Shown piece by piece: positions 4,340 through 51,024 of a DNA stretch of 64,000 nucleotides. The stretch is taken from NCBI GenBank assembly GCA_016197205.1, contig JACPWG010000100.1:8250-72249 (forward strand). Reading direction: 5' to 3'. The notes below the pieces were generated by a model that was not told where the DNA came from, ran no database searches, and saw nothing but the letters and a program-made list of their open reading frames with translations. The position numbers were made by a program, and so were the translations under genes. Source of the DNA: Planctomycetota bacterium. GTDB lineage: Bacteria > Planctomycetota > MHYJ01 > WSZJ01 > JACPWG01. Position 1 is the stretch's first letter. Each line of letters starts with the position of its first letter.

Positions 4340-4374
4340 CCGTCGGTGCAGGGCGGAAGCCCTGCACCACAAGG
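4340..4374. repeat. REP-like hairpin element CCGTCGG-TGCAGGGC-GGAA-GCCCTGCA-CCACAAGG (copy 1)
   Basis: Perfect 8-bp stem with a 4-nt loop. The same 34-bp unit recurs at 24903, 46385 and 46554, with a variant at 24660. Confidence 0.8.
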
Positions 4375-4676
4375 GCTCGCAGCCACCCGAAAAAGCAGTG
4401 GGAAGCTCGCTCATTCCCTCACCGGCATCTGCTGCTCCCTCTCCCAAGAGCCGATCCGTTCTCTGCACCCTGAAAGGGCTGGCCGGGCAGGCCATGCGCG
4501 CGGGCAGGGACGCTCGCGCCCCCAGGGGTCGTGAGGACAGCGCACGCGCGGTGTTTTTTTTGCGTAGGCCCCAACCGGGGACCCCGCACGCGGGACTCGA
4601 CTCGAAACCAGAGGTCCTGCCCTGCACATGGTCGCCTATCGCCGTCATGGCGTCCCCGCGAGTCAACAGGACCTGC

Positions 4677-7875: not shown

Positions 7876-7972
7876 GGACGATCCCTCGACAGGAAGACCG
7901 CACACACGCGGAGATCAGCGCGAGGAAAGGGTCGGTTTCCTGCTTCGCTGCCCCGCTCTGCATCCTCCTAGT

Positions 7973-8097
7973 GCCCCGTTGACGAGGTCCAGTCACGATG
8001 CCTGGGGGCGCGGGCCTCCGGCCCGCCCGAACGGCCGCATGGGTTACGACCCGCCGTGGCAGAGTTGACGACCGTGTCCGAAGTTCGTCAACGGGCC
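7973..8097 (+). mobile_element. MITE-like element with 16-bp terminal inverted repeats GGCCCGTTGACGAAGT (copy 1, slightly diverged TIR)
   Basis: About 95% identical to 31645-31769. Both ends are rc-complementary. Creates the spurious ORF MPGGAGLRPARTAAW. Confidence 0.75.
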
Positions 8098-13464: not shown

Positions 13465-13824
13465 ATGACGAAGATGCTTGCTTCCGGACTTGTCGGACTG
13501 GTGATGGCGCTCGCCATGCCCGCCGCGAGCGCCGACCACTACTCGAACACGTACTACCCGCCTTGTGGGTCCACGACCGTCACCTACGCGCCGGCCTACT
13601 ACACGCCGACGTACTACGCACCCACCTACTACACGCCGACCTACTACGCCCCGACCTACTACAGCCCTTGCACGACCACGACCTACTACACGCCCACCTA
13701 CTACCAGACCACGACCTACTGCCCGCCGACCTACTACGCGCCCACCTACTACCGCAGCGGGTCCTCCTTCTCCTATCGCTACTCCAGCGGGTGCTCGTCG
13801 TTCGGCTTCTCCTACCGCCGCTAG
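13465..13824 (+). CDS. small secreted Tyr/Thr/Pro-rich repeat protein (PTYY(A/T) repeats)
   Basis: RBS AAGGAG 7 nt upstream. Signal peptide MTKMLASGLVGLVMALAMPAASA. At least eight PTYY repeats, four Cys, very high GC3, and a terminator directly downstream. Confidence 0.7.
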   Translation: MTKMLASGLVGLVMALAMPAASADHYSNTYYPPCGSTTVTYAPAYYTPTYYAPTYYTPTYYAPTYYSPCTTTTYYTPTYYQTTTYCPPTYYAPTYYRSGSSFSYRYSSGCSSFGFSYRR

Positions 13825-13877
13825 CCGAGCACGAGCCGCAGCCTCTCGGCCCCTCGCCATACCCCCGGTGCTCCAGC

Positions 13878-13912
13878 GGGAGCGGCACTCGCCGCTCCCG
13901 CTTCTTTTTTTT
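13878..13912 (+). terminator. rho-independent terminator
   Basis: GGGAGCGGC-ACTC-GCCGCTCCC hairpin followed by GCTTCTTTTTTTT. Confidence 0.65.
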
Positions 13913-14176
13913 ACGCCCCAACGCGCGAGCCGTTACGAATCCGGACGGCGGGCCGTTACGACGCGTAGCGGCGGCGGAATCGAAACCAGACCGGGCCGAC
14001 GGGCTGCTTCCGAAATTCATCGCAACATACCTGCCAACAGCATGTTGCAATCTCATTAGAATTCGACGCCATTGGGCACCACGCTTGCATTCTGGGTAGG
14101 GCGTCCTCAACAAGATGAGTCGCAACCAGGTTCAGAAAAAGGAGACAGGCCCCCCCGAGGGCGACAACCGAGCCCC

Positions 14177-14222
14177 GATCTTCTTCCCCGGGGACCGTCA
14201 CCAGGTGTGTGGCCTGGTGACC
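14177..14222. repeat. long perfect palindrome/hairpin (about 19-bp stem)
   Basis: CCCCGGGGACCGTCACCAGG-TGTGTGG-CCTGGTGACCCCCGGGG. Confidence 0.6.
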
Positions 14223-14281
14223 CCCGGGGAAGTTACTTACGGACCGCGCGACCGGCCGCACACCGCGCCGCCGCTGGGCGG

Positions 14282-14323
14282 AAATCCCAAATCCCAAATC
14301 CCAAATCCCAAATCCCAAATCCC
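14282..14323 (+). repeat. tandem heptamer array (AAATCCC)x5 plus AAATCAG
   Basis: Perfect 7-nt periodicity. An AT-rich island in a GC-rich genome. Confidence 0.9.
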
Positions 14324-14334
14324 AAATCAGGCGT

Positions 14335-14440
14335 GCGCCCGAAACCCAAAATGGAGGAAATAGCCACCGAACACGCCGAAGACGCCGAAATGCACGACAG
14401 GCCGTTCGGTGTCTTCGGCGAGTTCGGTGGCTCGTTCCCC
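14335..14440. repeat. diverged copy of the GC-core of repeat family A (..CGAAATGCAC..GGTGTCTTCGGCGAGTTCGGTGGCTCGTTCCCC)
   Basis: Aligns to 30781-30837 and 36530-36583. Confidence 0.5.
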
Positions 14441-14712
14441 CGTGGGCGGAGCGCACGGCTGCCGAAATCGGGACAGGCTTTCAAGAAGCCGAACGATAGG
14501 GACCCAAATCGCACGGCGCCGAAGTAGATACGGGTAGGAAGGCTCAAGGCTCAACGCCTGGGGCTTCGACGCCCGGGGCAGACTCCGGATCGTCGGCAGG
14601 ATCGAAGCCGGGGAGGCACAAGAACCTGCCGAGACCGCTCCCTCACGGTCGCGGTTCGGTGTAGGGCGGCCACACGTCGGGCGACCTTGGCGGGGCGGTG
14701 GTCGTAGGCTTG

Positions 14713-14748
14713 CCAAATCTCAATTCTCAATTCTCAATTCTCAAATCC
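14713..14748 (+). repeat. tandem heptamer array AAATCTC-(AATTCTC)x3-AAATCCC
   Basis: Perfect 7-nt periodicity. It abuts the 3' end of the esterase gene. Confidence 0.85.
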
Positions 14749-14752
14749 CCCA

Positions 14753-17131
14753 TCACTTTCCGCCGCCGACCGGCAGCACCACGCGGTTCGCGTAGAGGAC
14801 GTCTCGCTCTCCGCGCTGACGAGAAGTCTCCAGCAAGTGCCCGACGCTCCGCGCCGGCTTCCCCTGCCACCGGATCGCGCCGTCCAGCCGGACGACGATC
14901 GGCTGGTCCAGGTCGAGCAGCCGATCCGCGAGTTGCACGGTCACTTCACGGACGTTCGACGAAACCGAAAGCAGGACCTCGTTCCCGCGGATCTCGCCGG
15001 TCACTCGTCCCGGAGTGTTCAACAGCGTCCGCTGTTCGATCGCGTCGCCGTCCGGCCCTTGCACGCTCAACACCGTCTGCCGCAGGCTCGTGAGGCCCGC
15101 CAGCTCCACCCAGCACGACCGCGAGTACTGCTCCTCACGCGTCACGAACGTCACCTTGCGCGGGTATGGGTTCCGGCGGCGCGCCTGCATCCACTCCACG
15201 ACACGCTCGTTTTCGTCCGCGAAGTGCTCGTGCCCGCGGCCCGCGAACTCCCGGTACGTCACGTCGTACCCCTCGTCGCGCAGCCGCGCGCAGCCTTTGC
15301 GAGGGGCCTCCGGACTCACCATCGTGTCCTGGTCGCCGTTCATCGACAGCACCGCGACGCCGAAGAGGTTGTCGATCAAGTCCATGACCCGGAGCGGCGA
15401 GCCCGACCGCGGCACGATCCCCGCCCAGCGATCGGGAAAGGCCACTCCCAGGATCCAGCACATGTGCGCCCCCATCGACATCCCTTCGAGGAAGACGCGA
15501 TCCGGATCCACATGAAACGTCCGGCGCACGTCCGCGGCGACGGCGAGGACCAGCGACTCGCTCGCGCGCGAATGGCCGAAGCCGATCCGCCGCTCGGCGG
15601 TCGGGCACGCGACCAGGAAGTCCAGCGTGCTCAGGCGCCGGCCCCAGGAGTAGACCTGCACGTCGCCCGTGGCGTGCGTCGGATGCAGCGAGATCAGCAG
15701 CGGCCAGGACTTCGCCGGGTCGTAGCCGACGGGAATCGAAAGCAGGTACTCGGTGCGGCCGCCGCCCAGGGGACAGGTCACCGGGACGCGCCGCAGACCG
15801 GTCCGTCCGTCGAAGGGCGCCGGCCGCGTGCCCGGTCCCAGGCGCACGACCGTCTCCACGGCGGCGAAAGGCGCGTGCATCGACTCGATTTCCTGCAAGG
15901 CCGTCGCGGCCGCCGGAGCGGCGGGATCGGTCGCCGACAGGTAGGTCTCGACGGCCTTCTCCAACCGCGCAAGTCCGTCCGCGCCGCCCACGGCCTGGAG
16001 CGGAAAGTCACGGCCGTAGCGGGCGAGGGCCTCGAGGCGTGAGCGCCGCGCTTCATCCTCCGCGGCAACCCCCGCTCCGCCGCCGCCCGCATGCGCGGAG
16101 CGGGCGAGCAGGTCGAGCGCCAGGGCGGCATTCCCCGACTCCTCGGCGGCCCAGCTCGCCTCCCGCGCGAAAGCCGCGTCCCCCTGCAACGACGGCGACG
16201 CGGTCCAAACGCCCAGCGCCCGCGCGGCCAGCCCCAGCTTTCGCAAGCACCGCATGCGCTCGAGCGCGCCGGCCAGGTCCCGCCCCGCGGCGCCGCCGCC
16301 CGCCTCAGGTGTTTCCCCTAGACGCTGGTACGCCCGGATCCGCTCCGGCGCACCCGCGTCCCCGACCGCCCGCGCCATGCGGATCGCCTCTTCCCAGGTC
16401 CCTTGCTCGGCGAAAGCGCGCTCCAGGCCGCGACGCGCCGGCTCCGCGCGGCCCGGGAAGCCGTCGAGCCCGCGGCCGTCGCTCCCCAGCGCGGCCGTCC
16501 ACTCCCGCTCCGCCTCCGCCGCCCGCCCTTCCGCGAGATAAAGCTCCGCCAGCGCGGAGCGCGCGGCGGGGACGCAGGTCGCCTCGGGCGCATCCCGCCG
16601 CAGCGCCGACAGCTTCCCACGGGCCGCGTCAAGCCGGCCCGCGCGCCGCTCGGCCTCCGCTTCCGTCAAGAGCCGCTCCGCCCGCGGATCCAGGAGACGG
16701 CGCAGCGCGGCGAGCGCGACCGCGTGCCCCGGCTTCGAGGCGAGGGCCTCGCGCAGCAGCTCGACGCCGAGGTCCGGAAGGCCCGCCTCGACCGCGCGCG
16801 CGGCGAGCTTGACACGGCCGTCCGCGTCGTCCCTCGCGAGGAGGGCGCGCGCGGCGGCGAGTTCCTCGTCCGGCGTGGCCTTGCGCTCGATGTGGTCGAC
16901 CTGAGACGCCGGGATGGTGGAGATGCCGGTCCGCACCTGAATGCGCACGACGCCGTCCTTCTCTTCGAGGACCTTCCCCTCGATCCGGCCGCCGCTCGTA
17001 AGGTACACGATGTCGGCGCGGACCGCGCGCGCGAGCGGGCCGAGGCCGATTCCGAGCGCCAGGGCGAGGCAGGCGGCGGCCCTTCGCGACCTTCGGCCGA
17101 ACCGTCGGCCAGGCGAAACCGATTGATCCAT
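14753..17131 (-). CDS. secreted TPR-repeat protein fused to an alpha/beta-hydrolase (esterase/depolymerase-like) domain
   Basis: ATG at rc 17129-17131. Signal peptide MDQSVSPGRRFGRRSRRAAACLALALGIGLGPLARA. The middle is Ala/Leu-rich and TPR-like. The C-terminal hydrolase has GMSMGAH (GxSxG). Other ORFs over this span are shadows. Confidence 0.75.
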   Translation of the reverse strand: MDQSVSPGRRFGRRSRRAAACLALALGIGLGPLARAVRADIVYLTSGGRIEGKVLEEKDGVVRIQVRTGISTIPASQVDHIERKATPDEELAAARALLARDDADGRVKLAARAVEAGLPDLGVELLREALASKPGHAVALAALRRLLDPRAERLLTEAEAERRAGRLDAARGKLSALRRDAPEATCVPAARSALAELYLAEGRAAEAEREWTAALGSDGRGLDGFPGRAEPARRGLERAFAEQGTWEEAIRMARAVGDAGAPERIRAYQRLGETPEAGGGAAGRDLAGALERMRCLRKLGLAARALGVWTASPSLQGDAAFAREASWAAEESGNAALALDLLARSAHAGGGGAGVAAEDEARRSRLEALARYGRDFPLQAVGGADGLARLEKAVETYLSATDPAAPAAATALQEIESMHAPFAAVETVVRLGPGTRPAPFDGRTGLRRVPVTCPLGGGRTEYLLSIPVGYDPAKSWPLLISLHPTHATGDVQVYSWGRRLSTLDFLVACPTAERRIGFGHSRASESLVLAVAADVRRTFHVDPDRVFLEGMSMGAHMCWILGVAFPDRWAGIVPRSGSPLRVMDLIDNLFGVAVLSMNGDQDTMVSPEAPRKGCARLRDEGYDVTYREFAGRGHEHFADENERVVEWMQARRRNPYPRKVTFVTREEQYSRSCWVELAGLTSLRQTVLSVQGPDGDAIEQRTLLNTPGRVTGEIRGNEVLLSVSSNVREVTVQLADRLLDLDQPIVVRLDGAIRWQGKPARSVGHLLETSRQRGERDVLYANRVVLPVGGGK

Positions 17132-17323
17132 GCACGCTCCGCGGCTATACTGCCGCATCCTGGCGCTGGGCGCGGTCGTACCCCTTACCCCTGCCCCATC
17201 CCGCTCCCCTCCTTCGCTCGCTGCGGCGAGCTTCGGGGCGCAGGCTGAGGAAGAGGGGGAAGGTCGGCCGACAGCGCTTGCGCTTGGCGAGCCAGGGTCG
17301 CCGAGCCTACCCTTGAGTTCAAC

Positions 17324-18475
17324 ATGTCCGCAACGCACACGAAGCCCCGCGTCGTCGTCGCCATGAGCGGCGGCGTCGATTCGTCCGTCGCCGCGCTTCT
17401 TCTCCATGAGGCCGGCTACGACGTCGTTGGGCTCTTCATGCGCAACGGCATCCACGTCGAGAATCCCCTCACGAAGACCAAGGGCTGCTGTTCGCTCCGG
17501 GACGCGGACGACGCGCGGCGGGTCGCCGATCGGCTTGGCGTTCCCTTCTACGCCGTCGACTTCTCGCGGGACTTCCAGAAGCTCATCGGCGAGTTCGTCG
17601 AGGAGTACAACGCGGGACGCACGCCGAACCCGTGCGTCCGTTGCAACCAGGACCTGAAGTTCGGGAAGCTCCTGGCCTACGCGGAGTCGCTCGGCGCGGA
17701 GGCCGTGGCGACCGGCCACTACGCCCAGGTCGCGGACCGGGACGGCCGGCGCGTGCTGCGGCGCGGTCTCGACGTCACGAAGGACCAATCGTACGTGCTC
17801 TTCCCGCTCGTGCAGGCGCAGCTCCGCAGGACGCTCCTCCCCATCGGCGGCATGACGAAGGCGGAGGTGCGCGAGCGCGCACGCGCCGCCGGGCTCTGCA
17901 CCGCGGAGAAGCGCGAGAGCATGGAGATCTGCTTCGTCCCGGACGACGACTACGGCCGACTCATCGCGGAGCGCACGCCGGACCGCGTCCGCGAGGGGGA
18001 GCTCCGGGACGTCCACGGGCGCGCCCTCGGCCGCCACCCTGGCTACCAGCACTTCACGATCGGCCAGCGACACGGCCTGCGCATCGCCCTCGGCCGGCCG
18101 GCGTACGTGGTCCAGCTCCTGCCGGAGGAGAACGTCGTCGTCGTGGGCTTCGGCGAGGACCTGCTCTCGGCCGGGCTGGTGGCGACGCGCTCGAACTGGG
18201 TCTCGCGAGGCGCGCCCGAGCTCGGCGCCACGGTGCGGGTGGCCGCGAAGATCCGGTCCCACCACGACCCGACCCCCGCGACGGCGACGGTGCTGCCGGG
18301 GGGAGGCGTGCGCGTCGAGTTCGACGAGCCGCAGCGCGCGGTCACGCCGGGGCAGGCGGTGGTCCTCTACGACGGAGACGAGGTCGTTGCGGGCGGCTGG
18401 ATCGATGCGGCCCTGCCCATGACGGGGGCGGCGGCCTCGCGGGCGGCGGAGCTTCGGGCTACGAATCGCTGCTGA
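17324..18475 (+). CDS. mnmA: tRNA-specific 2-thiouridylase
   Basis: VVVAMSGGVDSSVAA P-loop...NPCVRCNQDLKFGKLL...GHYAQ. Full-length match to MnmA. Confidence 0.92.
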   Translation: MSATHTKPRVVVAMSGGVDSSVAALLLHEAGYDVVGLFMRNGIHVENPLTKTKGCCSLRDADDARRVADRLGVPFYAVDFSRDFQKLIGEFVEEYNAGRTPNPCVRCNQDLKFGKLLAYAESLGAEAVATGHYAQVADRDGRRVLRRGLDVTKDQSYVLFPLVQAQLRRTLLPIGGMTKAEVRERARAAGLCTAEKRESMEICFVPDDDYGRLIAERTPDRVREGELRDVHGRALGRHPGYQHFTIGQRHGLRIALGRPAYVVQLLPEENVVVVGFGEDLLSAGLVATRSNWVSRGAPELGATVRVAAKIRSHHDPTPATATVLPGGGVRVEFDEPQRAVTPGQAVVLYDGDEVVAGGWIDAALPMTGAAASRAAELRATNRC

Positions 18476-18699
18476 ACCACGCGCCGCACAATCGCTGCCC
18501 TCCACACACCCAACCCTTTCCAGGTGGGTGAACGGGTCGCCCCTTGCGGCAGGGAACATCGCAGGTCAGACCGCTGGAAGGGTGCGACTCCCGAGTGCCG
18601 GCCTTCGCCGGCTCAAGTGAAAAGGCTACTCGCGGCAGGCGACGGGACGGAGCCACCCCATCGAAGACGCTGACCACGCCTCCGCAGCCCCGCTCCGCG

Positions 18700-19500
18700 T
18701 CACCCCGCCAGGAATTTCTCCAGGTACTCCAGGAAGTTCCCCGCCCGGACCGCTGTCGTGTAGTCGAGGATGGCGAGGCCGTCCATGCGGTAGTTGGGAT
18801 AGCAGGAGGTCGGGGCGGCGCCACGCGGGGCGTGCACGACGAAGTCCACGTCGCGAGCCAGGACGTCGACGCGCCCCTCGGGCAGCTCGGAGGTCGGCAC
18901 GATCTCCTCGGCGCTCAAGATCGTCAGCTCGGCGAGGGCCGCGATTTCGCGGTCGATGCCGTGGTTGCCGAGGAGCACGGCGTTTCCCTCGGCGTCGGCC
19001 TTCTGCGCGTGGACGAAAGCGACCTGCGGGTGGAGCGGGGGGACGGCGAGGAACGATTCGCCGGTGTAGGGGCACTGGACGGTGCGGAGGTCGGGCCGGA
19101 CGCGCGGCACGTCGCTGCCGAGGATGCCGCGGACGGGCAGGAACGGGACGCAGGAGAGGGTGGCGCGGAGGCCGGCGGCGATCGTCGCTTCGGTCTCTTC
19201 GATGAGTTCGATGGAGCCGGCGACGGCGCCGGAGGTGAGGGCGGTGAAGACGGGCGCGAGGCCGAAGCCCTCCAGGCCGAAGTAGCAGGTGCGGACGCGC
19301 GAGACCGCGCCCGCGCCGAGGAGGAGGTCGCTCTCGAGGCCGCAGGTGAGGGCGAGAAGGGTGTGTTCGGAGGTCTTGCGGCGGAGGAGGGCGCGGACGA
19401 GCGCGAGGGGGCGGCGATAGAGGGTCATGCCCCCGAGGGCCAGCATAGAGCCGCGGGGGACTTCGGCGACGGCTCGAGCCGCATCGACCAGGATGCCCAT
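18700..19500 (-). CDS. CoA-transferase family protein (3-oxoacid/glutaconate CoA-transferase subunit-A-like)
   Basis: MGILVDAARAVAEVPRGSMLALGGMTL... ATG at rc 19498-19500. No adjacent subunit-B gene. Confidence 0.65.
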   Translation of the reverse strand: MGILVDAARAVAEVPRGSMLALGGMTLYRRPLALVRALLRRKTSEHTLLALTCGLESDLLLGAGAVSRVRTCYFGLEGFGLAPVFTALTSGAVAGSIELIEETEATIAAGLRATLSCVPFLPVRGILGSDVPRVRPDLRTVQCPYTGESFLAVPPLHPQVAFVHAQKADAEGNAVLLGNHGIDREIAALAELTILSAEEIVPTSELPEGRVDVLARDVDFVVHAPRGAAPTSCYPNYRMDGLAILDYTTAVRAGNFLEYLEKFLAG

Positions 19501-19688
19501 GGTCCCACTCCAGAGAACGGATGGGCTCAAGGGTGGCGACGCTTTCCCGACGCGGGGCACGGCACCGCCGTGCCCCTACAGCCAACGCGGGGCTGGGCGC
19601 CGGGAAGCGAGCAGGGGCCAGGGGGCTGACGTGCGGGTACGGCAGCGCCGCGCCCCTGCCACGAGGAGAGCGGTGACGAGAGCGGCTT

Positions 19689-20880
19689 CTACTTGAACTG
19701 GAACGCGGCGCCGCTCGTGTCCCACCACTCTTTCCAGCGGCGATAGCCTTCCTCCCACTCTTCGGAGCGGGTGGACCAGAGCTTGTAGCCGAAGCTATAG
19801 CCGGTCGCGCTCCGGAGGCCGGAGTAGGCGATCGCCCGCTTGGTCTCCTCGGGGGACTTCAGGTAGCTGATGAGGACCGGGATGCCGTCCTTCGACTTGA
19901 GCAGGACCAGCGCCTCGGCGGTGTAGAACTTGAGGTCGCTGTTGTCGGTCCGCACGCAATCGCGGAGCGCGGGGACGGCCGAGTTGTCGCCGACGCGACC
20001 CAGCACGCGGACGCAGGCGACCTGGAGCTGCGGGTCGACTTCGCGCTTGAGGGCGTCGCTGATGAGGGGGAGGACGTCGCGCGGCTCGAGGGTCGCCAGG
20101 ACGTCGATCGCCGCCGACTGGTAGGTGAAGTCTCGCAGGTAGCCGACGAAGGTCGGCGCCACGAACCTGCTGTAGGGGCGCAACCCGGCGGCGACCGCCT
20201 TGCCGTCCTTGTCCGTCTGGAAGCGCTGCAGCAGTTGGGAGACCTTCTCCTGCGTCGCCGCGTCCGAGATCTGCGGCACCGCGGGTCCGGCGCTCTTGCC
20301 CGCGCCCACAGGAGGGACGGAGCCCCTGGCCGCGCCCGCGCCCGCGCCCGGACCGGCCGCGTCGCCGCCGCCCGTGAGGGCATTGTAGGCGGAGGAGGAC
20401 CCGCCCTTGGCCCCGGGTTCATGGCCGGTCCCGGCGCCGCCGGCGGCTCCCGCCGCGGCGCCGCTCGAGCCCGCGCCCCGCGCGGTCCCGGCCGCGCCCT
20501 TCGGGCTGCCGCCGCCGGCGCCCGCTCCGGCTCCTCGTGCGCCCGGCACGGGGCCCGGCTGCGCCGCGCCTGCGGACGGCCCGGCCTCGCCGTAGCTCCC
20601 CACCGGGTCCTGGCCGGCGGTGGGCACCGACCGCGGATACGTCGTGGGGACCGTCTCCCGGCCGCCCCCCTGCGCCAGCCGGTCGCTCAGCGCCGACACC
20701 TGACGGCGCACATCCTCGATGTCCCGACGGTTCTGCTTCACGCTCTCCTCGATGAGGTCCAGCCGATTGTCCGCCGTTGCCGGCGGCCTCGGCGCGGGTT
20801 CCTCCTTCTTGCCGCCGAACATCGAACAGCCGCACAAGAGGGCCATCCCGAGAAGCGCGATCATTCCCCTTGCGAACATG
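19689..20880 (-). CDS. HEAT-repeat lipoprotein with a Gly/Ala-rich low-complexity linker
   Basis: MFARGMIALLGMALLCGCS lipobox. C-terminal HEAT/PBS-lyase-like repeats (VACVRVLGRVGDNSAVPALRDCV...). Confidence 0.6.
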
Positions 20881-20949
20881 ACGACCTCCAACCACCGCTT
20901 GCAGGACAGGCGAATACCGGGTGCCGGCTGCCGGGTGCCCGGACGCGGG

Positions 20950-21205
20950 CCCCCCCGGATCACGTCGAAAATCCCAAATCCCAACTCGGGCGAAGGCCCG
21001 AAACCCAAACGGACGACGAAACCACCAAGCCACCAAGGCACGAAGACCACGAAGGACCGTCACTGAGGGGGGCGAGTTTGGCCCGGCCGAAATGCGCCTT
21101 TGTGGTCTTAGTGACTTCGAGTCTTTGTGGTTTCGTCGCCTGCGAATCTGGATACGCTTTCAAGAAGTTCACAGGTAAGTGTCGAAATCCCAAATCTCAA
21201 TTCCG
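20950..21205. repeat. composite intergenic repeat block: AAATCCC heptamers, then a 45-bp inverted repeat (GACGACGAAACCACCAAG...), then AAATCCC/AAATCTC heptamers
   Basis: The arms 20998-21045 and 21094-21138 are reverse complements. It shares CGACGAAACCACA with 30540-30560. Confidence 0.6.
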
Positions 21206-22261
21206 AAAGCGCACTTCCCGGTCGCCCGCCACCACCTTCCCGAGGACGTAGGCCCGCTCCCCCGCCTTCTCCAGCCGCCGGATCGCGACGTCCACGAAGT
21301 ACGGATCCAGGAGGAGGACCATCCCGATCCCGAGGTTGAAGACGCGGCGCATCTCGGCCTCCTCGATGCCGCCCTGCTCCTGGACCCAGCCGAAGATCGG
21401 GGGCACGGGCCAGCTACCCGTCCTGACGTCCACGGCGCAGCCGGCCGGGAGCACGCGCGGGACGTTTTCGACCATCCCACCGCCCGTGATGTGGGCCATC
21501 GCCTTCACGCACCGGCGCGCATTGTGCGCGCGCGTGGCGTCGCGCAGCGCGCGCGCGTAGATCCGCGTCGGCTTGAGCAGCTCCTCGCCGAGGGTACAGC
21601 CCAGCGCCGGGACCACGGCGTCGAGCTTCACCTTCGACCGCTCCACGACCTTGCGCACGAGCGAGTAGCCGTTCGAGTGGAGCCCCGACGAGCCGATCCC
21701 CACGACCACGTCCCCGGGGACCACGGTCTTTCCGTCCAACAGCCGGCCCTTCTCGACCACGCCCACCGCGAAGCCCGCGAGATCGTACTCGCCGTCCTTG
21801 TAGAAGCCCGGCATCTCCGCCGTCTCCCCGCCGAGGAGCGCGCACCCGGACTGCTCGCACCCGGCCACGATCCCCTTCACCACGTCGAGCAGGACCCCCT
21901 CCTGGGCCTTGCCCGTCGCGATGTAGTCGAGAAAAAAAAGCGGCTCGGCCCCCGTGACCAGCAGGTCGTTCACGTTCATCGCCACCAGGTCGATCCCGAC
22001 CGTGTCGTGCTTGCCCAGCTCGTGCGCGAGGCGCAGCTTCGTCCCGACGCCGTCCGCGCAGCCGACCAGGACCGGGCGGCGGTAGGTCTTCCGGAAGATC
22101 GGGCTCTCGCCGTTCAACGAGAAGAGGCCCGCGAAGCCCCACGGGTTGTCGATGACGCGCGGACCGTACGTGCGCTTCATCATGTGGAGGATCTTGTCGA
22201 CGACGCCGTCCTTGCGGGACTGGTCGACGCCGGAGTCCTGATAGGTCAGGCCCTTCGCCAT
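21197..22261 (-). CDS. purM: phosphoribosylformylglycinamidine cyclo-ligase (AIR synthetase)
   Basis: MAKGLTYQDSGVD...GVGTKL...DLVAMNVNDLLVTGAEPLFFLDY. Full-length. Confidence 0.93.
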   Translation of the reverse strand: MAKGLTYQDSGVDQSRKDGVVDKILHMMKRTYGPRVIDNPWGFAGLFSLNGESPIFRKTYRRPVLVGCADGVGTKLRLAHELGKHDTVGIDLVAMNVNDLLVTGAEPLFFLDYIATGKAQEGVLLDVVKGIVAGCEQSGCALLGGETAEMPGFYKDGEYDLAGFAVGVVEKGRLLDGKTVVPGDVVVGIGSSGLHSNGYSLVRKVVERSKVKLDAVVPALGCTLGEELLKPTRIYARALRDATRAHNARRCVKAMAHITGGGMVENVPRVLPAGCAVDVRTGSWPVPPIFGWVQEQGGIEEAEMRRVFNLGIGMVLLLDPYFVDVAIRRLEKAGERAYVLGKVVAGDREVRFRN

Positions 22262-22274
22262 TTCCGGTCAGCTC

Positions 22275-23690
22275 CTAGCCGCAAGACGGCGCGCCGCGTT
22301 CGAAGATTTCCTTCCGCATCCCGGCCTCGACCGGGACGGGGTAGCGCCCGGAATAGCAGGCGGCGCAAAAGCGGTCCGCGGGCTGGCCGGGCGCGGCGCG
22401 CAGCATCCCCTCCAGGCTCAGGTACCCGAGGGAATCGACGCCCAGGTAGTCCCGGATCTGCGGGACGCTCCGCTCGTTCGCGATGAGCTGGCGCGGGTCC
22501 GGGAAGTCGATCCCGTAGAAGCAAGGATGCCGGATCGGCGGGCAGCTCACGCGCAGGTGGACCTCGCGGGCGCCGACCTCGCGCAGGGCCTTCACGCGCG
22601 AGCGCGCGGTGGTCCCGCGGACGATCGAGTCGTCGACGACCACGACGCGCTTCCCCTCGACGACCTCGCGGACGATGTTCAGCTTGATCTCCACCTCCTG
22701 GTCGCGCGCGCCCTGAGTCGGCTGGATGAACGTCCGGCCCACGTAGTGGTTCCGGATGAAGCCCTGCTCGAACGGGATGCCGCTCGTCGACGCGTACCCG
22801 AGCGCGGCGGAGTTGCCGGAATCCGGGACCGCCATCACGAGGTCCGCCTTCGCCGGGTGCTCGCGCGCCAGCTCGGCCCCGAGCCGCATCCGCACGATGT
22901 GCACGGTGTCGCCGAAGACCCGGCTGTCGGGCCGCGCGAAGTAGACGTGCTCGAAGACGCAGAAGCTGGACCGCGCTTCGCCGGCCTCCGTGTACCGCTC
23001 CGAGCGGACGCCGTCCTTCGTCACGTGGAGGATCTCACCCGGCTCGATGTCGCGGACGTAGTTCGCCTTGATCAAGTCGAAGGCGCAGGTCTCCGAGGCG
23101 ACGACGTACGCGCCCCCGAGCCGGCCGAGGCAGAGCGGCCGGAAACCGTTCGGGTCGCGGACGGCGATGAGCTCGCGCGGCGTGAGCAGCAGGAGGGAGA
23201 AGGCCCCGCGCAGGCGGCGAAAGGTCCGCGCCAGGCCGTCCGGCTTCCCCGCGTGGTCCGGGTGGGCGAGGAGGTGGAGGACGATTTCCGAGTCCACGGT
23301 GGTCTGGAAGATGGACCCGTGGGCCTCCAGCTCGCGGCGCAACTCGCCGCTGTTCACGAGGTTGCCGTTGTGGGCGACGGCGATGGGCCCGCCGGCGCAA
23401 TCGGCGACGAGGGGCTGGGCGTTGAGCAGCGTGGAGGCGCCGGTCGTCGAATAGCGCACGTGCCCCATGGCGAGCGGGCCGGCGATGCGTTCGAGAGTGG
23501 CCGGAGAGAACACGTCCGCGACGAGCCCCATGCCCTTGTGGAGCCGGAGCCGCGTCCCCTCGGAGGAGACGATCCCCGCGCTCTCCTGCCCGCGGTGCTG
23601 GAGAGAGTAGAGGCCGTAGTAGGTCTTGAGGACCGCGGCGGCGTCCCCGACGATCCCGAAGAGGCCGCACGCCTCGCGCGCTTCCCTCAT
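22275..23690 (-). CDS. purF: amidophosphoribosyltransferase
   Basis: Propeptide MREAREA, then the CGLFGIVG Ntn nucleophile. PRTase motif VVVVDDSIVRGTT. C-terminal Cys cluster. Confidence 0.93.
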   Translation of the reverse strand: MREAREACGLFGIVGDAAAVLKTYYGLYSLQHRGQESAGIVSSEGTRLRLHKGMGLVADVFSPATLERIAGPLAMGHVRYSTTGASTLLNAQPLVADCAGGPIAVAHNGNLVNSGELRRELEAHGSIFQTTVDSEIVLHLLAHPDHAGKPDGLARTFRRLRGAFSLLLLTPRELIAVRDPNGFRPLCLGRLGGAYVVASETCAFDLIKANYVRDIEPGEILHVTKDGVRSERYTEAGEARSSFCVFEHVYFARPDSRVFGDTVHIVRMRLGAELAREHPAKADLVMAVPDSGNSAALGYASTSGIPFEQGFIRNHYVGRTFIQPTQGARDQEVEIKLNIVREVVEGKRVVVVDDSIVRGTTARSRVKALREVGAREVHLRVSCPPIRHPCFYGIDFPDPRQLIANERSVPQIRDYLGVDSLGYLSLEGMLRAAPGQPADRFCAACYSGRYPVPVEAGMRKEIFERGAPSCG

Positions 23691-24204
23691 CGCGCCTTCA
23701 TCTCCTCCAGGGCCGTCGAAATCTCCCAGCGCCACTTCTTCGTCTCGTCGAGGGCCAGCGAGCGCTTGTAGCAGCGGCGGGCCCGCCAGCGCTTTCCCTC
23801 CCCCTGGTAGACCATGCCGAGGTAGAAGTGCGCGGTCGGGTCGTCCCGGTCCAGCCGCAGGACGCGCTTCAGACGCCGGCGCGCGCCCTCGAGGTCGTTG
23901 CGGACGTAGGCGGCGAGCGCTTCGAGGAAGAGGTGTTTCTTGCGCGTGACGACGCCGGCGCGCTCGCGCCAGTACACGAGCCGCATGGCGTCGAGCATGG
24001 AGTAGAGCCACACGAGGGCGGCGGCCGCGAAGAGGCCCGGCCGCTCGACCGGGGGCGGCCCCCCTTGCCAGAGGACGGGGGCGACGACCCAGAAATTCAC
24101 GAGCACCGCGAACACGGTGAAGAGCACCAGGCCGCGGCGGCAGCGCCCGAGGAGGATGTGGCCGAGCCCCGGCAGTACCGAGAGGAGGACCGCGAAGACC
24201 TTCA
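23687..24204 (-). CDS. small membrane protein with TPR-like C-terminus
   Basis: MKVFAVLLSVLPGLGHILLGR. Its stop overlaps the purF start as ATGA. Confidence 0.5.
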
Positions 24205-24363
24205 TGGGCGCTGCGACCGAGGGGAGAGAAGGACGGGGGACGAACCGCGAAGTACGCCAAGTACGCGAAATTCGGAGAGAGGGAGAGTATAGGACGGCCG
24301 GGCGGAAATGCAACCGAATTCCGGGCCGCGGGGGCGGACCTCGCGGCTCAGGGCCCGTAAAGA

Positions 24364-24565
24364 AACAACAACCCGAACTGAGGCTAAACTCGACCGACGG
24401 CGGCAAATGGCTAGATCATGGCTCCGCGTCCCAGCTAGACACGGGCGAAATTTGAGATTTGAAATTTGACTTTTTGCAATTTGAAATTCGACCCGGCCGC
24501 GTGGGGCGAATGCGAGACTTTTGCACAGAGACGCGGAGACGCAGAGGCCGGGCGCCGAGTCCACC
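24364..24565 (+). repeat. Rpt200 interspersed repeat, copy 1 (about 200 bp; contains an internal AAATTTG/AGATTTG heptamer array)
   Basis: About 96% identical to 51025-51226. The 3' 85 bp are also present inverted at 40604-40688. Confidence 0.85.
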
Positions 24566-24659
24566 GTCCGCTACCGGCGATGATCTCTGGCAACGCACGG
24601 AGAGATCGGTCTTAGCTTCACTTCGGCTTGTTGTAAAGACACCCGTCAGGCACTCACGC

Positions 24660-24693
24660 CAGTCCGTGCAGGCCGGAAGGCCTGCACCCCAAG
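24660..24693. repeat. REP-like hairpin variant (TGCAGGCC-GGAA-GGCCTGCA)
   Basis: Same flanks (CAGTCCG..CACCCCAAGGG) as the other REP copies. Confidence 0.6.
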
Positions 24694-24782
24694 GGCCTCT
24701 CCCCAGCCCTTTCAAGGTGGTGTCGTCACGCTTCCGCCCGCCGCAAGCAGATGGTTCACTTGATCGTGCGGCTTGAGTCCGC

Positions 24783-24812
24783 TTTATGGTGCAGGGCTTC
24801 CGCCCTGCACCC
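24783..24812. repeat. REP-like hairpin (TGCAGGGC-TTCC-GCCCTGCA, inverted orientation)
   Basis: Core identical to the other copies. Confidence 0.7.
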
Positions 24813-24902
24813 GCACTCGCACGGAACCTCCGAAGCACTTCCCCCGTTCCCGTCGAGCCGCCCCCGCACCCAACGGCCTGCGTCATTTCCACCCGGGTTG
24901 TC

Positions 24903-24937
24903 CCGTCGGTGCAGGGCGGAAGCCCTGCACCACAAGG
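24903..24937. repeat. REP-like hairpin, full 34-bp unit identical to 4340-4374
   Basis: CCGTCGGTGCAGGGCGGAAGCCCTGCACCACAAGG. Confidence 0.8.
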
Positions 24938-25100
24938 TCTCGTGGCCGAAGGAGGAAAGCACTGGAAGCTCGCCCATTTCCGCGCACGGGCGGTTGAGGC
25001 TCCGTTTTGCGAAGATCAACTCGTTCGCCCACCTTGAAAGGGCTGGGGCCTTTTCCCTCCGACGAAGGTGCCGAGCCCGGGGTTGTTCCTGTACGGGCCC

Positions 25101-25448
25101 TCACCCGGGCCGGACCGAGAGGAACTGCACGACGAGGTGGTGCACCAGGTAGAAGGGGACGGCGAGGATGCCGGGGAACCAGAGGCAGGTCAGGAGGGTG
25201 AGCACCACCTTCTCGCAGCGGGAGAAGTGGGGGCTCTTCCACAGCCAGGGAAGGCCGAACTCGAAGGCGACCAGGAAGAGCAGGAGGTAGACGCCCTTCC
25301 GGTCCTGCCAGGCGGGTTCGCGGAGCTTGAAGGCGGCGCCGCAGCTCGGGCAACGGATGCTTCCGGTCGGAAGCTCGTGCTTGCAGGAGGGGCAGCGCCA
25401 GCGGGCGCCGGAGGGCGGGTCGAGGGGCCGGCTCGCGGTGTCAGACAC
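25101..25448 (-). CDS. zinc-ribbon (CPSC...CPSC) membrane protein, GTG start
   Basis: High GC3 frame VSDTASRPLDPPSGARWRCPSCKHELPTGSIRCPSCGAAF followed by two TM helices. Its GTG overlaps the stop of the upstream gene as GTGTCTGA. Confidence 0.55.
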   Translation of the reverse strand: MSDTASRPLDPPSGARWRCPSCKHELPTGSIRCPSCGAAFKLREPAWQDRKGVYLLLFLVAFEFGLPWLWKSPHFSRCEKVVLTLLTCLWFPGILAVPFYLVHHLVVQFLSVRPG

Positions 25449-26145
25449 GGCCGACGGCCGGACCCGGCGCCAGCACGGCCTCGTCCTTGACGAGGTGGTG
25501 CGTGCCCACCCGGGCAAACGAGAACTGTGAGAGCAACTCCGCGAGGCTCTCCATGCCCCCCTTGAGCGCCGAATCGCTGTGCGCGCTGCCGCCGAACACG
25601 ACGACCAGGATCCGCCGCGCGTGGGAGCCCACGGTCGTCCGCGCCGAATCGGCGAGCATGGAGCCGAAGGCGCCCGGCGTGTCGGAAAGCACGGGCACCC
25701 CCGCCGCGTCGAACTTGTCCCGGGCGGCCGTGTCGAACTTCTCGTTCTCGCGCCCCAGGCGCAGCTCCACGTCGCCGCGAATCCGGGCCAGGTCGTAGCA
25801 GGAGACCGGCAGCATCGTCTCGAGCGACACGAGATTGGCGGCATCCACCACGGAGTTCACTTGCAGGACCGGCAGGCTCTTGAGCGTCTTTCGCAACAGC
25901 AGTTCCGAGGAGGTCCGGTGCCGTTCCGGGTCGAGCCCGACCGCCTTCACGAACTTTTTCACCTTGAGCAGGTCGCCGTTTTCGAGCGGGTTCTTCGTCC
26001 GTGCCGTCTCCCGGACGGACCGGGAGAGGATCTGGAACCTTCCCCAGAGGATTTCCTGGCGGCGCAGCACGCGGACCTCTTCCGCGAGGAAGACGCCGAG
26101 TCGCGCCGACGAACGCAAGTCAGGGTGAATGTGGATCTTCATCAT
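25441..26145 (-). CDS. B3/4 domain-containing protein (PheT-B3/B4-like tRNA-binding fold)
   Basis: VDAANLVSLETMLPVSCYDLARI motif. Length about 234 aa. Confidence 0.7.
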   Translation of the reverse strand: MMKIHIHPDLRSSARLGVFLAEEVRVLRRQEILWGRFQILSRSVRETARTKNPLENGDLLKVKKFVKAVGLDPERHRTSSELLLRKTLKSLPVLQVNSVVDAANLVSLETMLPVSCYDLARIRGDVELRLGRENEKFDTAARDKFDAAGVPVLSDTPGAFGSMLADSARTTVGSHARRILVVVFGGSAHSDSALKGGMESLAELLSQFSFARVGTHHLVKDEAVLAPGPAVGRV

Positions 26146-30639: not shown

Positions 30640-30837
30640 ACCAAAGCTCGACGAACCACAGATTTCACAGATTACACAGATTGCGACGATTCTCATATGT
30701 GAAATCTGTGCAATCTGTGACACAAGCTCGCAAAAGCTTGTTTTTCTGGCGACGAATTCTCCGCAGAAAATTCGCGAAATCGGCGAAATGCGCGGTTCGT
30801 CTTTCGGTGTTTTCGGCGTCTTCGGTGGCTCGTCCCT
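30640..30837. repeat. repeat family A copy 1: CACAGAT(T) heptamer/inverted arrays plus a 120-bp core (GTGACACAAGC...GAATTCTCCGCAGAAAATTCGCGAAATCGGCGAAATGCGCGGTTCGTCTTTCGGTGTTTTCGGCGTCTTCGGTGGCTCGTCCC)
   Basis: The core is nearly identical to 36466-36583. Confidence 0.8.
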
Positions 30838-31019: not shown

Positions 31020-31643
31020 ATGTTCCGCGAAAAGACGATTCAAGAGTTCGTGACCGCGCTTTCCGCCAAGACCCCGACGCCGGGGGGCGGCACGGCTGCC
31101 GCGGTCGCCGGCGCGTTTGGCGCCGCGCTCGGACACATGGTGGTGCAGTTCTCGGTCGGACGCACCGACCTGGCCCCGTACGAGGGGGACCTCGTGCGAC
31201 GCGGCAAGGAACTGGACGGGTTGTCGAGCGATCTCCTGCGGCTCGCGGACGACGACGCCGCGGCGTACGACGCGTACACGGCTGCCGGGAAGCTCCCCCG
31301 GACCACGCCCGAGGAAAAGGAGGCGCGCCGCGCCGCGCGTGAGGCCGCGCTCCGGCGCGCGCTCGAGGTCCCATTGGAGGGGATGCGCAAGGCGCTGGCC
31401 GTGCTGCGGGCGGTGCACTTCCTCGCCGCCCGCTCGAACCCGCACCTCGCGAGCGACGTCGGCGTCGGCGGGCTCCTCGCGTTCGCGGCACTTCGCGGCT
31501 GCCGGTTCAATGTCGACACGAACCTCGCCTCGCTCGCGGACGCCTCGGGGACCGGCCCCGTGCGCGAGGAGGCCGACAAGCTGGAAGCGGACGCGGGCAA
31601 GCTGCACGAGGACCTGCTGGCTCGACTCCGGCCGAGGGCCTAG
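31020..31643 (+). CDS. cyclodeaminase/cyclohydrolase family protein (methenyl-THF cyclohydrolase / FtcD C-terminal-like)
   Basis: MFREKTIQEFVTALSAKTPTPGGGTAAAVAGAFGAALGHMV is the family N-terminus. Confidence 0.8.
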   Translation: MFREKTIQEFVTALSAKTPTPGGGTAAAVAGAFGAALGHMVVQFSVGRTDLAPYEGDLVRRGKELDGLSSDLLRLADDDAAAYDAYTAAGKLPRTTPEEKEARRAAREAALRRALEVPLEGMRKALAVLRAVHFLAARSNPHLASDVGVGGLLAFAALRGCRFNVDTNLASLADASGTGPVREEADKLEADAGKLHEDLLARLRPRA

Positions 31644-31644
31644 T

Positions 31645-31769
31645 GGCCCGTTGACGAAGTCCAGGCACGATGCCCGGGGGCGCGGGCCTCCGGCCCGCGC
31701 GAACGGCCGCATGGGTTACGACCCGCCGTGACAGAATGGACGACTGTGTCCGAAGTTCGTCAACGGGCC
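31645..31769 (+). mobile_element. MITE-like element with perfect 16-bp TIRs GGCCCGTTGACGAAGT (copy 2)
   Basis: Inserted in the 145-bp spacer between the cyclodeaminase gene and purN. About 95% identical to 7973-8097. Confidence 0.8.
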
Positions 31770-33647: not shown

Positions 33648-33764
33648 CGCGAACCCGGAGAGCGACACGCACCCGCGTCCTGTCCGCGGCCGCAAGCACG
33701 CTCGGAAAATCCGCGCGGGGACGCGGAGAGAGCCTCTTCGCCCCTCGAGCACGCTTCCTGGGCT

Positions 33765-33873
33765 CGCGGACTCTGAGCCTTGAACTTTGAGCCTTGTCTG
33801 AACATTGAGCCTTGAGCCTGTTCCCGAGGAACTCCCTGGTTTCCGAACTGCATGAGTTGATTTTTTACGGGCT
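33765..33873 (+). repeat. E-family (TGAGCC-rich) repeat, partial copy E4
   Basis: Aligns to the 3' half of 42499-42709 (GACTCTGAGCCTTGAACTTTGAGCCTTGTCTGAA...CCCTGGTTTCCGA...TTTTTACGGGC). Confidence 0.7.
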
Positions 33874-36269
<2,396 letters not shown>

Positions 36270-36399: not shown

Positions 36400-36583
36400 A
36401 AGCACGGATTTCACAGATTCAACGAGATTACCCCGATTACGAATCTGTGAAATCGTCGTCAATCCGTGACACAAGCCGGCAAAAACTTTTTTTCCGGCAA
36501 CGAATTCTCCGCAGAAAATTCGCGAAATCGGCGAAATGCGCGGTTCGTCTTTCGGTGTTTTCGGCGTCTTCGGTGGCTCGTCC
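36400..36583. repeat. repeat family A copy 2 (CACAGATT inverted arrays plus the 120-bp core)
   Basis: Core 36466-36583 matches 30717-30837. Confidence 0.8.
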
Positions 36584-36694
36584 CTTAGGGTTGCGGTCGT
36601 CGGCTGCACTGGGAAATCCGTGGTTCCGTCGTCGCCGGGCTGCAGCCCAGCCGCGCACTGTCTCTGCGGTTACGGGGCCTCTTCTCCATCGACC

Positions 36695-40138: not shown

Positions 40139-40307
40139 GCTCGGCGCTCCGTTTTGGGTTCCGCACCCGAGACGTGGAGGACTTGCCGGTCCCCGCCCGT
40201 CGCTCGGGGCGCGTGCGGAGAAGGCATGGGCAGGCGGACGGGATTGTAACGCGTGCGGGCGCCGGGAGGCAAGGTGAAGTTGCGGCGCCGGGGCGGCGCC
40301 GGAGCGA

Positions 40308-40494
40308 GGCTTAGGGCCCGTAAAGGAACAAGTCAGGCAACTCGGAAACCGTGGACTTCCTCAGGAAAAGGCTCAAGGCTCAATGATCAATTTTCAGGCA
40401 AGGCTCAAAGTTCAAGGTTCAGAGTCCGCGATTCCGTGCCCGGGCTACGTTCCGAGGTGGTCTTTGAGAATTGAACCTTGAGCATTGAAAATTC
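40308..40494 (+). repeat. E-family repeat copy E1 (head TTAGGGCCCGTAAAGGAAC)
   Basis: Shares blocks with 42499-42709(-), 52378-52582(-) and 33765-33873. Confidence 0.8.
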
Positions 40495-40504
40495 TTGTCG
40501 TCTC

Positions 40505-40550
40505 CCTGCGCGTCAAACGAGCACGTTATTTTCTTCAACAAGCCGAAATG
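40505..40550 (-). repeat. 46-bp motif GAAGAAAATAACGTGCTCGTTTGACGCGCAGGGAGACG (copy 1)
   Basis: Also present at 42187-42235(+) and 52328-52376(+). Confidence 0.7.
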
Positions 40551-40603
40551 AAGCTAAAATCGATCTCTCAGTGCGTTGCCCGCGATTATCGCCGGTAGAG
40601 GAG

Positions 40604-51008: not shown

Positions 51009-51024
51009 CGCGCTCGAAAACAAA

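Follow-up and report, generated by a model that had tools for sequence, protein, structure and literature searches.

The DNA analysed here, called the window below and meaning the whole stretch of 64,000 nucleotides, is a chromosomal segment of 68% G+C from an uncultured member of the Planctomycetota, and it carries tandem arrays of AT-rich 7-nt units. We found that these heptamer arrays are real and non-random and that they fall, as heptanucleotide repeats, into the class of long simple-sequence repeats (SSRs; units of 5–11 nt). The planctomycete arrays thus belong to an already described, functionally unexplained class of bacterial SSRs. Where such arrays meet the ends of genes they obey an orientation rule that is real and extends across phyla, and stop codons are not its driver.

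Tandem arrays in the window were called with Tandem Repeats Finder, and the chance expectation was obtained from Markov shuffles. Strict period-7 runs numbered 5 against 0.05 expected, and relaxed lag-7 windows 14 against 0.4, an excess over shuffles of roughly 35- to 100-fold. Periods 5, 8, 10, and 11 were close to expectation; period 9 was likewise enriched (8 windows vs 0.2 expected). An earlier note on this DNA, made from the letters alone, had described the arrays as AT-rich intergenic islands in GC-rich DNA, and this was confirmed: they contain 23–50% GC within the 68% GC window, and all lie outside genes with codon-usage support except for one in the tail of an ADH gene. The same note had listed eight arrays of strict 7-nt periodicity. 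Period 7 was recovered at seven of the eight sites, the remaining one (30656-30722) having a 9-nt period. As to strictness, the description fits 14282-14328 and, roughly, 14714-47, whereas the other listed arrays are degenerate (24447-88, 47370-411, and 51107-48; 72–77% matches plus indels) or comprise two to three units each (20969-84 and 21184-204). Absent from that list were six more AT-rich arrays of the AAGGCTC, CAAGGTT, and AATTCTC types (14539-14554, 33770-33819, 40368-40422, 42504-42564/42593-42650, and 52378-52425/52465-52520), and also two GC-rich heptamer arrays (20911-20944 and 42721-42763).

The AT-rich units had been presented as several distinct heptamers. In fact all of them belong to one family, CAA[AGT][TG][CT]T (ARNNTTG on the other strand), which becomes apparent when they are read from CAA (CAAGGCT, CAAATCC, CAATTCT, CAAATCT, CAAGGTT, CAATGCT, CAAATTT, and similar), and the CAA-to-CAA spacing is exactly 7 in 45 of 56 cases. 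With the register anchored on CAA and paralogues counted repeatedly, mismatches between neighbouring units at unit positions 1–7 amounted to 2, 1, 1, 22, 14, 24, and 10, respectively. The earlier suggestion that one strand carries TGA in all three frames holds for the TTGA-bearing arrays, where the other strand is free of stops and the pattern follows from the TTGA core because 7 is not divisible by 3; it fails for (AAATCCC)n, which is without a stop on either strand.

Three window arrays lie at stop codons (14714-47, 21184-204, and 47370-411), and in all three the TTG/G-rich strand is in mRNA sense. The first begins 5–8 nt past the TGA stop (14753-14755) of a minus-strand gene of 1268 aa. In the second, the TGA stop of purM (21199-21197, minus strand) is the first-unit TGA of the array 21184-21204, and because the length of PurM equals that of its 75%-identical homologue, this array starts exactly at the conserved purM stop. 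In the third, the gene for NAD(P)H-hydrate epimerase (46636-47385, plus strand) has its TGA stop (47383-47385) in the second array unit, and its last four residues (RFEI) are therefore array-encoded. A different situation is found in the ADH open reading frame (ORF; 51095-52306, minus strand), which reads through 51107-51150, as the earlier note had stated, and translates the stop-free strand of this array as SNFKLQKVKFQISNF within a 49-aa tail. Of the 403 residues, those after 354 lie past the end of the zinc-ADH family model, and the last ~49 residues (51095-51241) are encoded by the repeat copy 51023-51226; the annotated C-terminus of ADH is probably repeat-derived.

To place these arrays among bacteria, the seed (AAWTCYC)3 was scanned over 185,579 species genomes, yielding at least 120 loci; all cross-phylum figures given from here on hold among the matches listed. 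Most of these loci are cyanobacterial, and the other carriers are Bacteroidota, Planctomycetota, Acidobacteriota, Verrucomicrobiota, Chloroflexota, Xanthomonas, Lysobacterales, Firmicutes, and groups of the candidate phyla radiation (CPR). The 120 listed loci hold 255 period-7 runs, as against 1–17 for periods 5, 6, and 8–11, and therefore about 135 further arrays with other units. Genomes with one heptamer array thus resemble the window in carrying others of a different unit, and unit sequences differ widely from genome to genome. Around the (AAWTCYC)n arrays of these loci, the flanks had nothing in common beyond continuation of the array. A single mobile element spreading the arrays across phyla was ruled out, as the flanks are unrelated and none of the 120 loci has the ISAzo13 terminus described below.

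The earlier note had proposed counting array orientation relative to gene ends, and this turned out to be clearly non-random. We scored 254 arrays from 121 sources with crude gene calls (longest ORFs, plus a filter on G+C at third codon positions for GC-rich loci), taking an array as stop-abutting if it overlapped a stop codon or began within 10 nt after it. Of 46 stop-abutting arrays (41 loci), 44 had the G-rich strand in sense (19 of 19 in cyanobacteria and 25 of 27 in other phyla). All 15 stop-abutting arrays that are stop-free on both strands conformed, as did those with the stop wholly outside the array (23 vs 2), and the rule was also seen in cyanobacteria and Bacteroidota of low GC content, in which stops arise frequently by chance. 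Stops without an array were followed by a weak baseline skew (G exceeding C in 51%, C exceeding G in 39%). Often the stop is a one-base variant of the first unit, as in TGA followed by GAATTGAGAATT or TAG followed by GGAATTGGGAATT. Arrays lying up to 50 nt upstream of starts showed the mirror image, being C-rich in sense in 38 cases vs 13, and C-rich-sense arrays at gene ends were mostly read through by the ORF (48 vs 11). Stop-abutting arrays were not enriched at operon ends or convergent gene pairs, and the next start was rarely near. Since the rule covers units that cannot form G-quadruplexes (G4) as well as stop-free ones, neither G4 folding nor a supply of spare stops can be its common cause.

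Within the window, the arrays have a second setting. The window is rich in dispersed intergenic repeats, and most heptamer arrays are modules of several such families; they are not confined to one larger repeat, a possibility the earlier note had raised, yet most do sit inside larger dispersed elements. Families 2 and 3 both terminate in TTAGGGCCCGTAAAGAAAYAAC, of which the window has 7 occurrences (0 expected), and their ends carry a terminal inverted repeat of ISAzo13 type, GGGCCCGTAAAGAAAYAAC, with a 3-bp TNA target duplication. Judging from these termini, both families are non-autonomous miniature inverted-repeat transposable elements (MITEs) of the ISAzo13 family, of which at least four copies lie within the 64 kb. 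When metagenomes were scanned with the terminal motif, matching termini among the matches listed adjoined transposase genes of PF07592 (DDE_Tnp_ISAZ013, 'Rhodopirellula'; E = 1e-139) and bounded short palindromic MITEs on either side, next to duplicated TAA, TTA, or TAT. A tblastn search found no ISAzo13-type transposase in the 64-kb window, and the window copies are therefore non-autonomous. A 3.2-kb Logan contig that matches the window at 99.97%, and hence represents the same strain in another sample, breaks at both ends inside these repeats. Apart from this contig and a metagenome-assembled genome with 75% PurM identity, scans of genomes and metagenomes turned up no close relative.

Family 3 is palindromic, with a 61-bp hairpin at its centre; both arms of this hairpin derive from a single heterogeneous heptamer array, present in inverted orientations with the same unit order. 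Its copy at 42189-42704 has terminal inverted repeats at 42189-42207 and 42686-42704, contains a nested insertion, and has hairpin arms at 42504-42564 and 42586-42646/50 (fold z = -9.5 against shuffled controls; two further repeat hairpins gave -3.5 and -3.8). A further MITE copy, 52328-52584, has a left terminal repeat at 52328-52346, a degenerate right end, and arms at 52378-52425(-445) and 52465-52520. The flanks of these two copies (AAA/TAA and TTA/TTG, respectively) are imperfect duplications. A partial element at 33764-33874 consists of the right arm array (33770-33819, TTG strand plus), a tail, and a terminal repeat (33856-33874) that abuts the TAG stop of tgt (33874-35019, minus strand). 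An inverted copy with a further module occupies 40276-40535, with arrays at 40368-40422 and ~40440-40500 and the terminal repeat at 40314-40332, and next to it comes family 2 in inverted orientation (40536-40693). Family 2 carries an array of the GAAATTT type, and its other copies are 24351-24640 and 51023-51226, the latter truncated and 97% identical to the copy that carries 24447-24490. The first of these belongs to a composite MITE-like element of 750 bp (24351-25100) with inverted termini GGGCCCGTAAAGAAACAAC and GTTGTTCCTGTACGGGCCC, a TCA/TCA duplication, and nested copies of other repeats; its right-hand TCA is the stop codon (TGA, minus strand) of the gene 25101-25448. Two MITE ends in the window coincide precisely with stops, namely those of gene 25101-25448 (TGA) and of tgt (TAG; 33856-33876), an indication that such codons are preferred as TNA targets in this 68% GC genome.

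Family 1 (14244-14510 and its paralogue 20931-21204) is a module different from families 2 and 3. It runs from a small hairpin through GAAACCCAAA and a long hairpin with 8-9-nt word repeats to GCTTTCAAGAAG, and it is bracketed by direct AAATCNC units (14282-14328 with 14497-14510; 20969-20984 with 21184-21204), as if the hairpin module had been inserted into, or had duplicated, a pre-existing array.

The link between MITEs and arrays is local to the genome of the window, because ISAzo13-type loci elsewhere are not rich in heptamer arrays (6 in 533 kb among the matches listed) and the ISAzo13 terminus is absent from the array loci of other phyla (the same 120 loci). On the former count we rejected the idea that heptamer arrays are a general trait of ISAzo13 MITEs.

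Comparison of paralogues indicates that array copy number changes by whole units, in the manner of slippage. The family-3 copy 33764-33874 is one unit shorter than its paralogues, the difference being an exact 7-nt gap, and the two family-1 paralogues have 6.7 vs 2.3 units. Look-ups of the proteins encoded beside the arrays, aimed at comparing copy number among strains, yielded no entries. Turnover between related genomes is also evident. The closest non-identical match to PurM is 75% identical and labelled 'Planctomycetes bacterium'. The nearest relative, GCA_016220045.1, with a 75%-identical PurM, has no array after purM and spacers of 91 and 133 nt where the window has 305 and 895 nt. This relative has an array of its own, the GC-rich (GACGGTG) x8, which starts at the TGA of a B3_4-domain gene (locus L122, 3408-3464, JACRIP010000589.1) and so follows the same placement rule with a very different unit.

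Taken together, we think it somewhat probable that the arrays are SSRs made by slippage, partly spread by MITEs, and filtered or weakly used at the mRNA level. Units would be gained and lost by replication slippage, with 7 nt the favoured unit in many bacteria, and the resulting heterogeneous arrays would then multiply as whole blocks, through inverted duplication and the transposition of MITEs. TNA-type targets are rare in 68% GC DNA, and both AT-rich arrays and stop codons may provide them, which would help to bring repeats, MITE ends, and stops together. The arrays occur in two settings: (a) at or just after a stop, with the TTG/G-rich strand in sense, and (b) as internal modules of mosaic repeats, often in both arms of a hairpin. 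The survival of arrays would depend on the transcript or its translation, through a filter on, or a weak use of, a 3′ untranslated region (UTR) made of G, A, and U only and a 5′ leader made of C, A, and U only. The strand rule, G-rich in sense after stops and C-rich in sense before starts, points to selection of the surviving arrays at this level. Several observations weigh against such an account. The 44:2 strand bias exceeds what one would expect from a simple filter. The CAA core is nearly invariant while variation is concentrated in unit positions 4–7, which is not what neutral decay of slippage products predicts. The 97%-identical copies of family 2 keep identical arrays, so that no hypermutability is visible on that time scale. 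Finally, carriage by MITEs accounts for the spread within this genome only and not for the origin of the arrays.

Part of this evidence would also fit a functional signal. The arrays could be 3′-UTR and leader signals read as single-stranded RNA, either by a protein that covers about 7 nt, of the cold-shock, S1, or CsrA-like kind, or by the terminating or initiating ribosome, with TCAA/UUGA as the recognised part and unit positions 4–6 as spacer; we regard this as rather unlikely, albeit the best of the alternatives. It would explain why the core is constant while other positions vary, why position and strand are fixed at stops and starts across phyla, as had been found earlier for the G-rich and mostly transcribed Xanthomonas heptamers (PMC4692102), why distant phyla have units of this one family, and why TGA/TCA is enriched in heptamer units (45/100 vs 27.4 +/- 4.3); binders of this kind have been proposed for the TAACTGA repeats (MacGregor 2015, PMC4679880). 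It sits poorly with the lack of conservation of arrays at orthologous sites in the nearest relative, or between Xanthomonas species (PMC4692102), and with the wide differences in unit sequence between genomes. Many window copies, moreover, are buried within MITEs and face either way with respect to genes, stop-abutting arrays show no enrichment at operon ends and seldom have a start close by, and no binder is known. A broader version, to which we give a little less credence still, is that C-free (G/A/U) sense arrays running from the stop, with their C/A/U mirror images before starts, constitute one cross-phylum post-transcriptional signal in a 7-nt register; its reader would be the ribosome or a conserved single-strand RNA-binding protein, and the UUGA/UCAA arrays would be its planctomycete form, spread by MITEs. 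Both versions keep this small share of probability on account of the strand rule and the invariant CAA core.

Inverted array pairs might instead act as long RNA hairpins that stabilise the upstream mRNA or terminate transcription, like repetitive extragenic palindromic (REP) sequences, bacterial interspersed mosaic elements (BIME), and other extragenic palindromes. The predicted folds are indeed well below those of shuffled controls, and inverted partners occur within 200 nt of 12 of the 44 stop-abutting arrays in other genomes and in 70–75 pairs per Xanthomonas genome (Rehm et al, 2015, PMC4692102). Most arrays are solitary, however, and the window hairpins lie within MITEs upstream of dnaE and adh rather than at 3′ ends. 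Their stems are AT-rich and lack a U-tract, and a canonical terminator (13875-13902) already precedes the array at 14282. We therefore consider this explanation improbable. A role as simple intrinsic terminators was rejected: a terminator scan of 13500-25500 found no U-tract hairpin at the arrays there (the nearest being 13875-13902), and there was no enrichment at convergent gene pairs.

The earlier note had offered, among other ideas, selected stop modules, i.e. frame-independent translational 'safety nets' behind genes in a genome where chance stops are rare. TGA in all three frames of one strand only, the three window arrays that touch stops in this very orientation (two of them supplying the stop), and the enrichment of TGA in units across phyla would all be expected under this view. 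Nevertheless, stop-free arrays follow the same rule without exception, and so do arrays in low-GC genomes, so that the proposal was not sustained. The array at 14282, (AAATCCC)n, offers no stop on either strand and adjoins no stop codon. When arrays were sorted by stop content, sense and antisense orientations were balanced within 0–300 nt of 3′ ends (33:36), with no excess beyond the stop-overlapping arrays. Like the ADH array, thirteen stop-asymmetric arrays are read through on the open strand, hairpin arrays present both strands, and the units show no excess of TAA or TAG over expectation. In cross-phylum units other than the seed, GAC/GTC, CAG/CTG, and CAA/TTG are enriched along with TCA/TGA, and TA and CG steps are depleted. 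We judge selected stop modules very unlikely.

Of even lower probability, in our estimation, is a role at the level of duplex DNA, be it as iterons, nucleation sites for nucleoid proteins, UP-like promoter elements, or G4 switches. AT-rich islands with a regular register in GC-rich DNA would suit such a role, and 14282-14328 has seven G3 tracts on its minus strand, in keeping with related units that form G4 in vitro (PMC4692102). By sequence, this is the only AT-rich array able to form an intramolecular G4; at least four consecutive G3 tracts are otherwise found just in the GC-rich array 42721-42763. Iterons, put forward earlier, find no support, since the arrays are scattered along 40 kb of the chromosome beside housekeeping genes (purM, dnaE, tgt, and adh) with no replication gene or origin nearby. 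The same applies to UP-like elements, as no sigma-70-like or other promoter-like site adjoins any array and most arrays follow a gene or separate a convergent pair. With a helical repeat of 10.5 bp, a 7-bp spacing would set A-tracts 240 degrees apart, and the DNA should have no net bend. The strand rule relative to genes favours a reading at the RNA rather than the duplex-DNA level.

Two further candidates were discarded. A phase-variation SSR does not agree with the location of the arrays after stops or in mobile repeats, with no flanking promoter-like hexamers. Rho loading (rut sites) through the C-rich strand is ruled out by the inconsistent orientation in the window and by the validity of the rule in cyanobacteria, which are not known to have Rho. 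A search against Rfam found no RNA family at the arrays, and the only hit in the window was a tRNA-Asn (gathering threshold and E ≤ 0.1).

Bacterial heptanucleotide repeats were first described in the 1990s, and to our knowledge nobody has shown a function for them. We found no functional study of such repeats later than the papers cited here. According to the summary of Mrazek, Guo & Shah (2007) in PMC4679880, they outnumber other long SSRs in most genomes, and slippage has been proposed as their source. The window arrays agree with the long SSRs summarised in PMC4679880 and PMC4692102 in their head-to-tail 7-nt units, greater length than expected by chance, intergenic location, and variable copy number. 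That class is found in free-living bacteria with large genomes, with period 7 dominating the neighbouring periods as it does here. The window differs in having one degenerate unit family with an invariant CAA core, and many of its copies are embedded in hairpins and MITE-like mosaics. Among the described cases of heptanucleotide SSRs that we found, none was from the Planctomycetota.

The closest precedent for the placement rule is provided by the G-rich heptamers (GGGAATC / GGGANTN)n of Xanthomonas and (GGGGAYT)n of Nostoc (Rehm et al, 2015, PMC4692102). There, the G-rich strand is the coding strand where repeats overlap a stop or lie within 0–50 bp of it, and the non-coding strand just upstream of ORFs. 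The unit GGGATTT of the window fits GGGANTN, and the two systems share intergenic location, frequent inverted pairs, placement, and absence of conservation between related species. In contrast, most window units (GAGAATT, GAGATTT, GAGCCTT, and GAAATTT) cannot form G4 and yet follow the rule, and the one G4-capable AT-rich array (14282) adjoins no stop codon. The cyanobacterial short tandemly repeated repetitive (STRR) sequences of Calothrix PCC 7601, cited in PMC4692102, likewise comprise several tandem heptamer types in the non-coding DNA of one genome. Cyanobacteria also dominate the (AAWTCYC)3 matches, although they differ from the window in phylum and base composition; because STRR have no functional definition, membership is a matter of definition only. 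The TAACTGA repeats of marine Beggiatoaceae, cyanobacteria, and Bacteroidetes, for which a post-transcriptional role was proposed (MacGregor 2015, PMC4679880), are comparable as intergenic TGA-containing heptamer arrays in unrelated phyla. They have a single fixed unit and lie mostly a few nt upstream of starts, unlike the degenerate arrays of the window, which lie mostly at 3′ ends or in mobile repeats.

As for the mobile part, GGGCCCGTAAAGAAAYAAC termini, a TNA duplication, palindromic non-autonomous copies, and assembly breaks are shared with insertion sequences (IS) of the ISAzo13 family (PF07592) and their MITEs; the window copies differ in having interiors built from heptamer arrays, which the element family lacks elsewhere among the matches listed. 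The window repeats also resemble enterobacterial REP/BIME elements, in which short palindromic modules are combined into variably ordered intergenic mosaics, frequently at gene 3′ ends. They have no sequence relation to these elements, however, and their modules include tandem 7-9-nt words and transposon termini.

The window thus adds a GC-rich planctomycete to the carriers of heptanucleotide repeats, and the placement rule known from G-rich, quadruplex-forming Xanthomonas and Nostoc repeats extends to non-quadruplex units in at least eight phyla. The significance of the arrays rests on the generality of this rule rather than on the window itself. MITEs, here of ISAzo13 type, can capture and multiply arrays and so offer them a way to spread inside one genome. 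Annotation is affected in practice, since stops are created or displaced by arrays and MITE ends (the purM stop, the epimerase tail, and the 49-aa ADH tail), which also break short-read assemblies.

Turning to the individual arrays, the perfect one, (AAATCCC) x6.7 with 100% matches at 14282-14328 (plus strand), reads (GGGATTT)n on the minus strand, a canonical G-quadruplex motif. It sits in a gap of ~840 nt between the intrinsic terminator 13875-13902 and the convergent gene 14753-18559 (minus strand), more than 180 nt from any gene end. A short (AAGGCTC) x2.3 array of the CAA[AGT][TG][CT]T family follows at 14539-14554 (plus strand), and at 14714-14744/47 (plus strand) lies (CAATTCT) x4.4 with 95% matches, flanked by AAATCTC and AAATCC units, with (GAGAATT)n and TGA in all frames on its minus strand. 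On the plus strand, (AAATCCC) x2.3 at 20969-20984 forms the left edge of the family-1 composite element 20931-21204, and 21184-21204 consists of three degenerate units of mixed type (AAATCCC AAATCTC AATTCC). At 24447-24488/90, GAAATTT x5.9 (72% matches, 5% indels; CAA strand minus) reads CAAATTG CAAAAAGT CAAATTT CAAATCT CAAATTT and has TGA in all frames on the plus strand; this array is within the ISAzo13-type composite element 24351-25100. An identical array at 51107-51148/50 (CAA strand minus) is within the truncated family-2 copy 51023-51226. The degenerate array at 47370-47411/15 is GAGATTT on the plus strand (x5.9, 77% matches, 5% indels; CAA strand minus). The 7-nt periodicity is not confined to AT-rich units, as GC-rich CCGGGTG x3.3 is found at 20911-20944 and CCCTCGT/CCCGTTC in ~5 units at 42721-42763 (both plus strand), the latter ending 7 nt 5′ of the dnaE start. 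Other genes of the window encode PurF, a GAF/PAS adenylate cyclase, and ABC permeases, in addition to DnaE, PurM, and Tgt.

At the site of 9-nt period (30657-30720), CACAGATTN x2.9 is followed by its inverted copy TGTGAAATC x2.6, giving a hairpin whose arms are tandem 9-mers. Hairpins with arms of tandem 8-9-nt 'word' repeats recur in the window, at 14367-14430, 21014-21138, 30657-30720, 30775-30836 (= 36523-36584), and 24526-24546 (= 51186-51206), with the words CCGAACACG, CCACCAAG, CACAGATTN, TTTCGGTGT, and CAGAGACG.

Several other repeats were noted. Just after dnaE, 46267-46602 is a 169-nt tandem duplication (95% identical) that contains a REP-like palindrome, GGTGCAGGGCTTCCGCCCTGCACC, with further copies at 4344-4384, 24784-24836, and 24907-24947, and a motif, GACCGCTCCCTCACGGTCGCGGTTCGG, with a further copy at 14630-14659. 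A 15/45-nt repeat within an ORF (13584-13753) encodes a proline/threonine/tyrosine-rich repeat protein and is followed by the strong intrinsic terminator 13875-13902. Finally, a dispersed repeat of ~130 nt, unrelated to the heptamer arrays, occurs at gene boundaries (7967-8097 = 31639-31769, 93%; inverted at 48743-48875).

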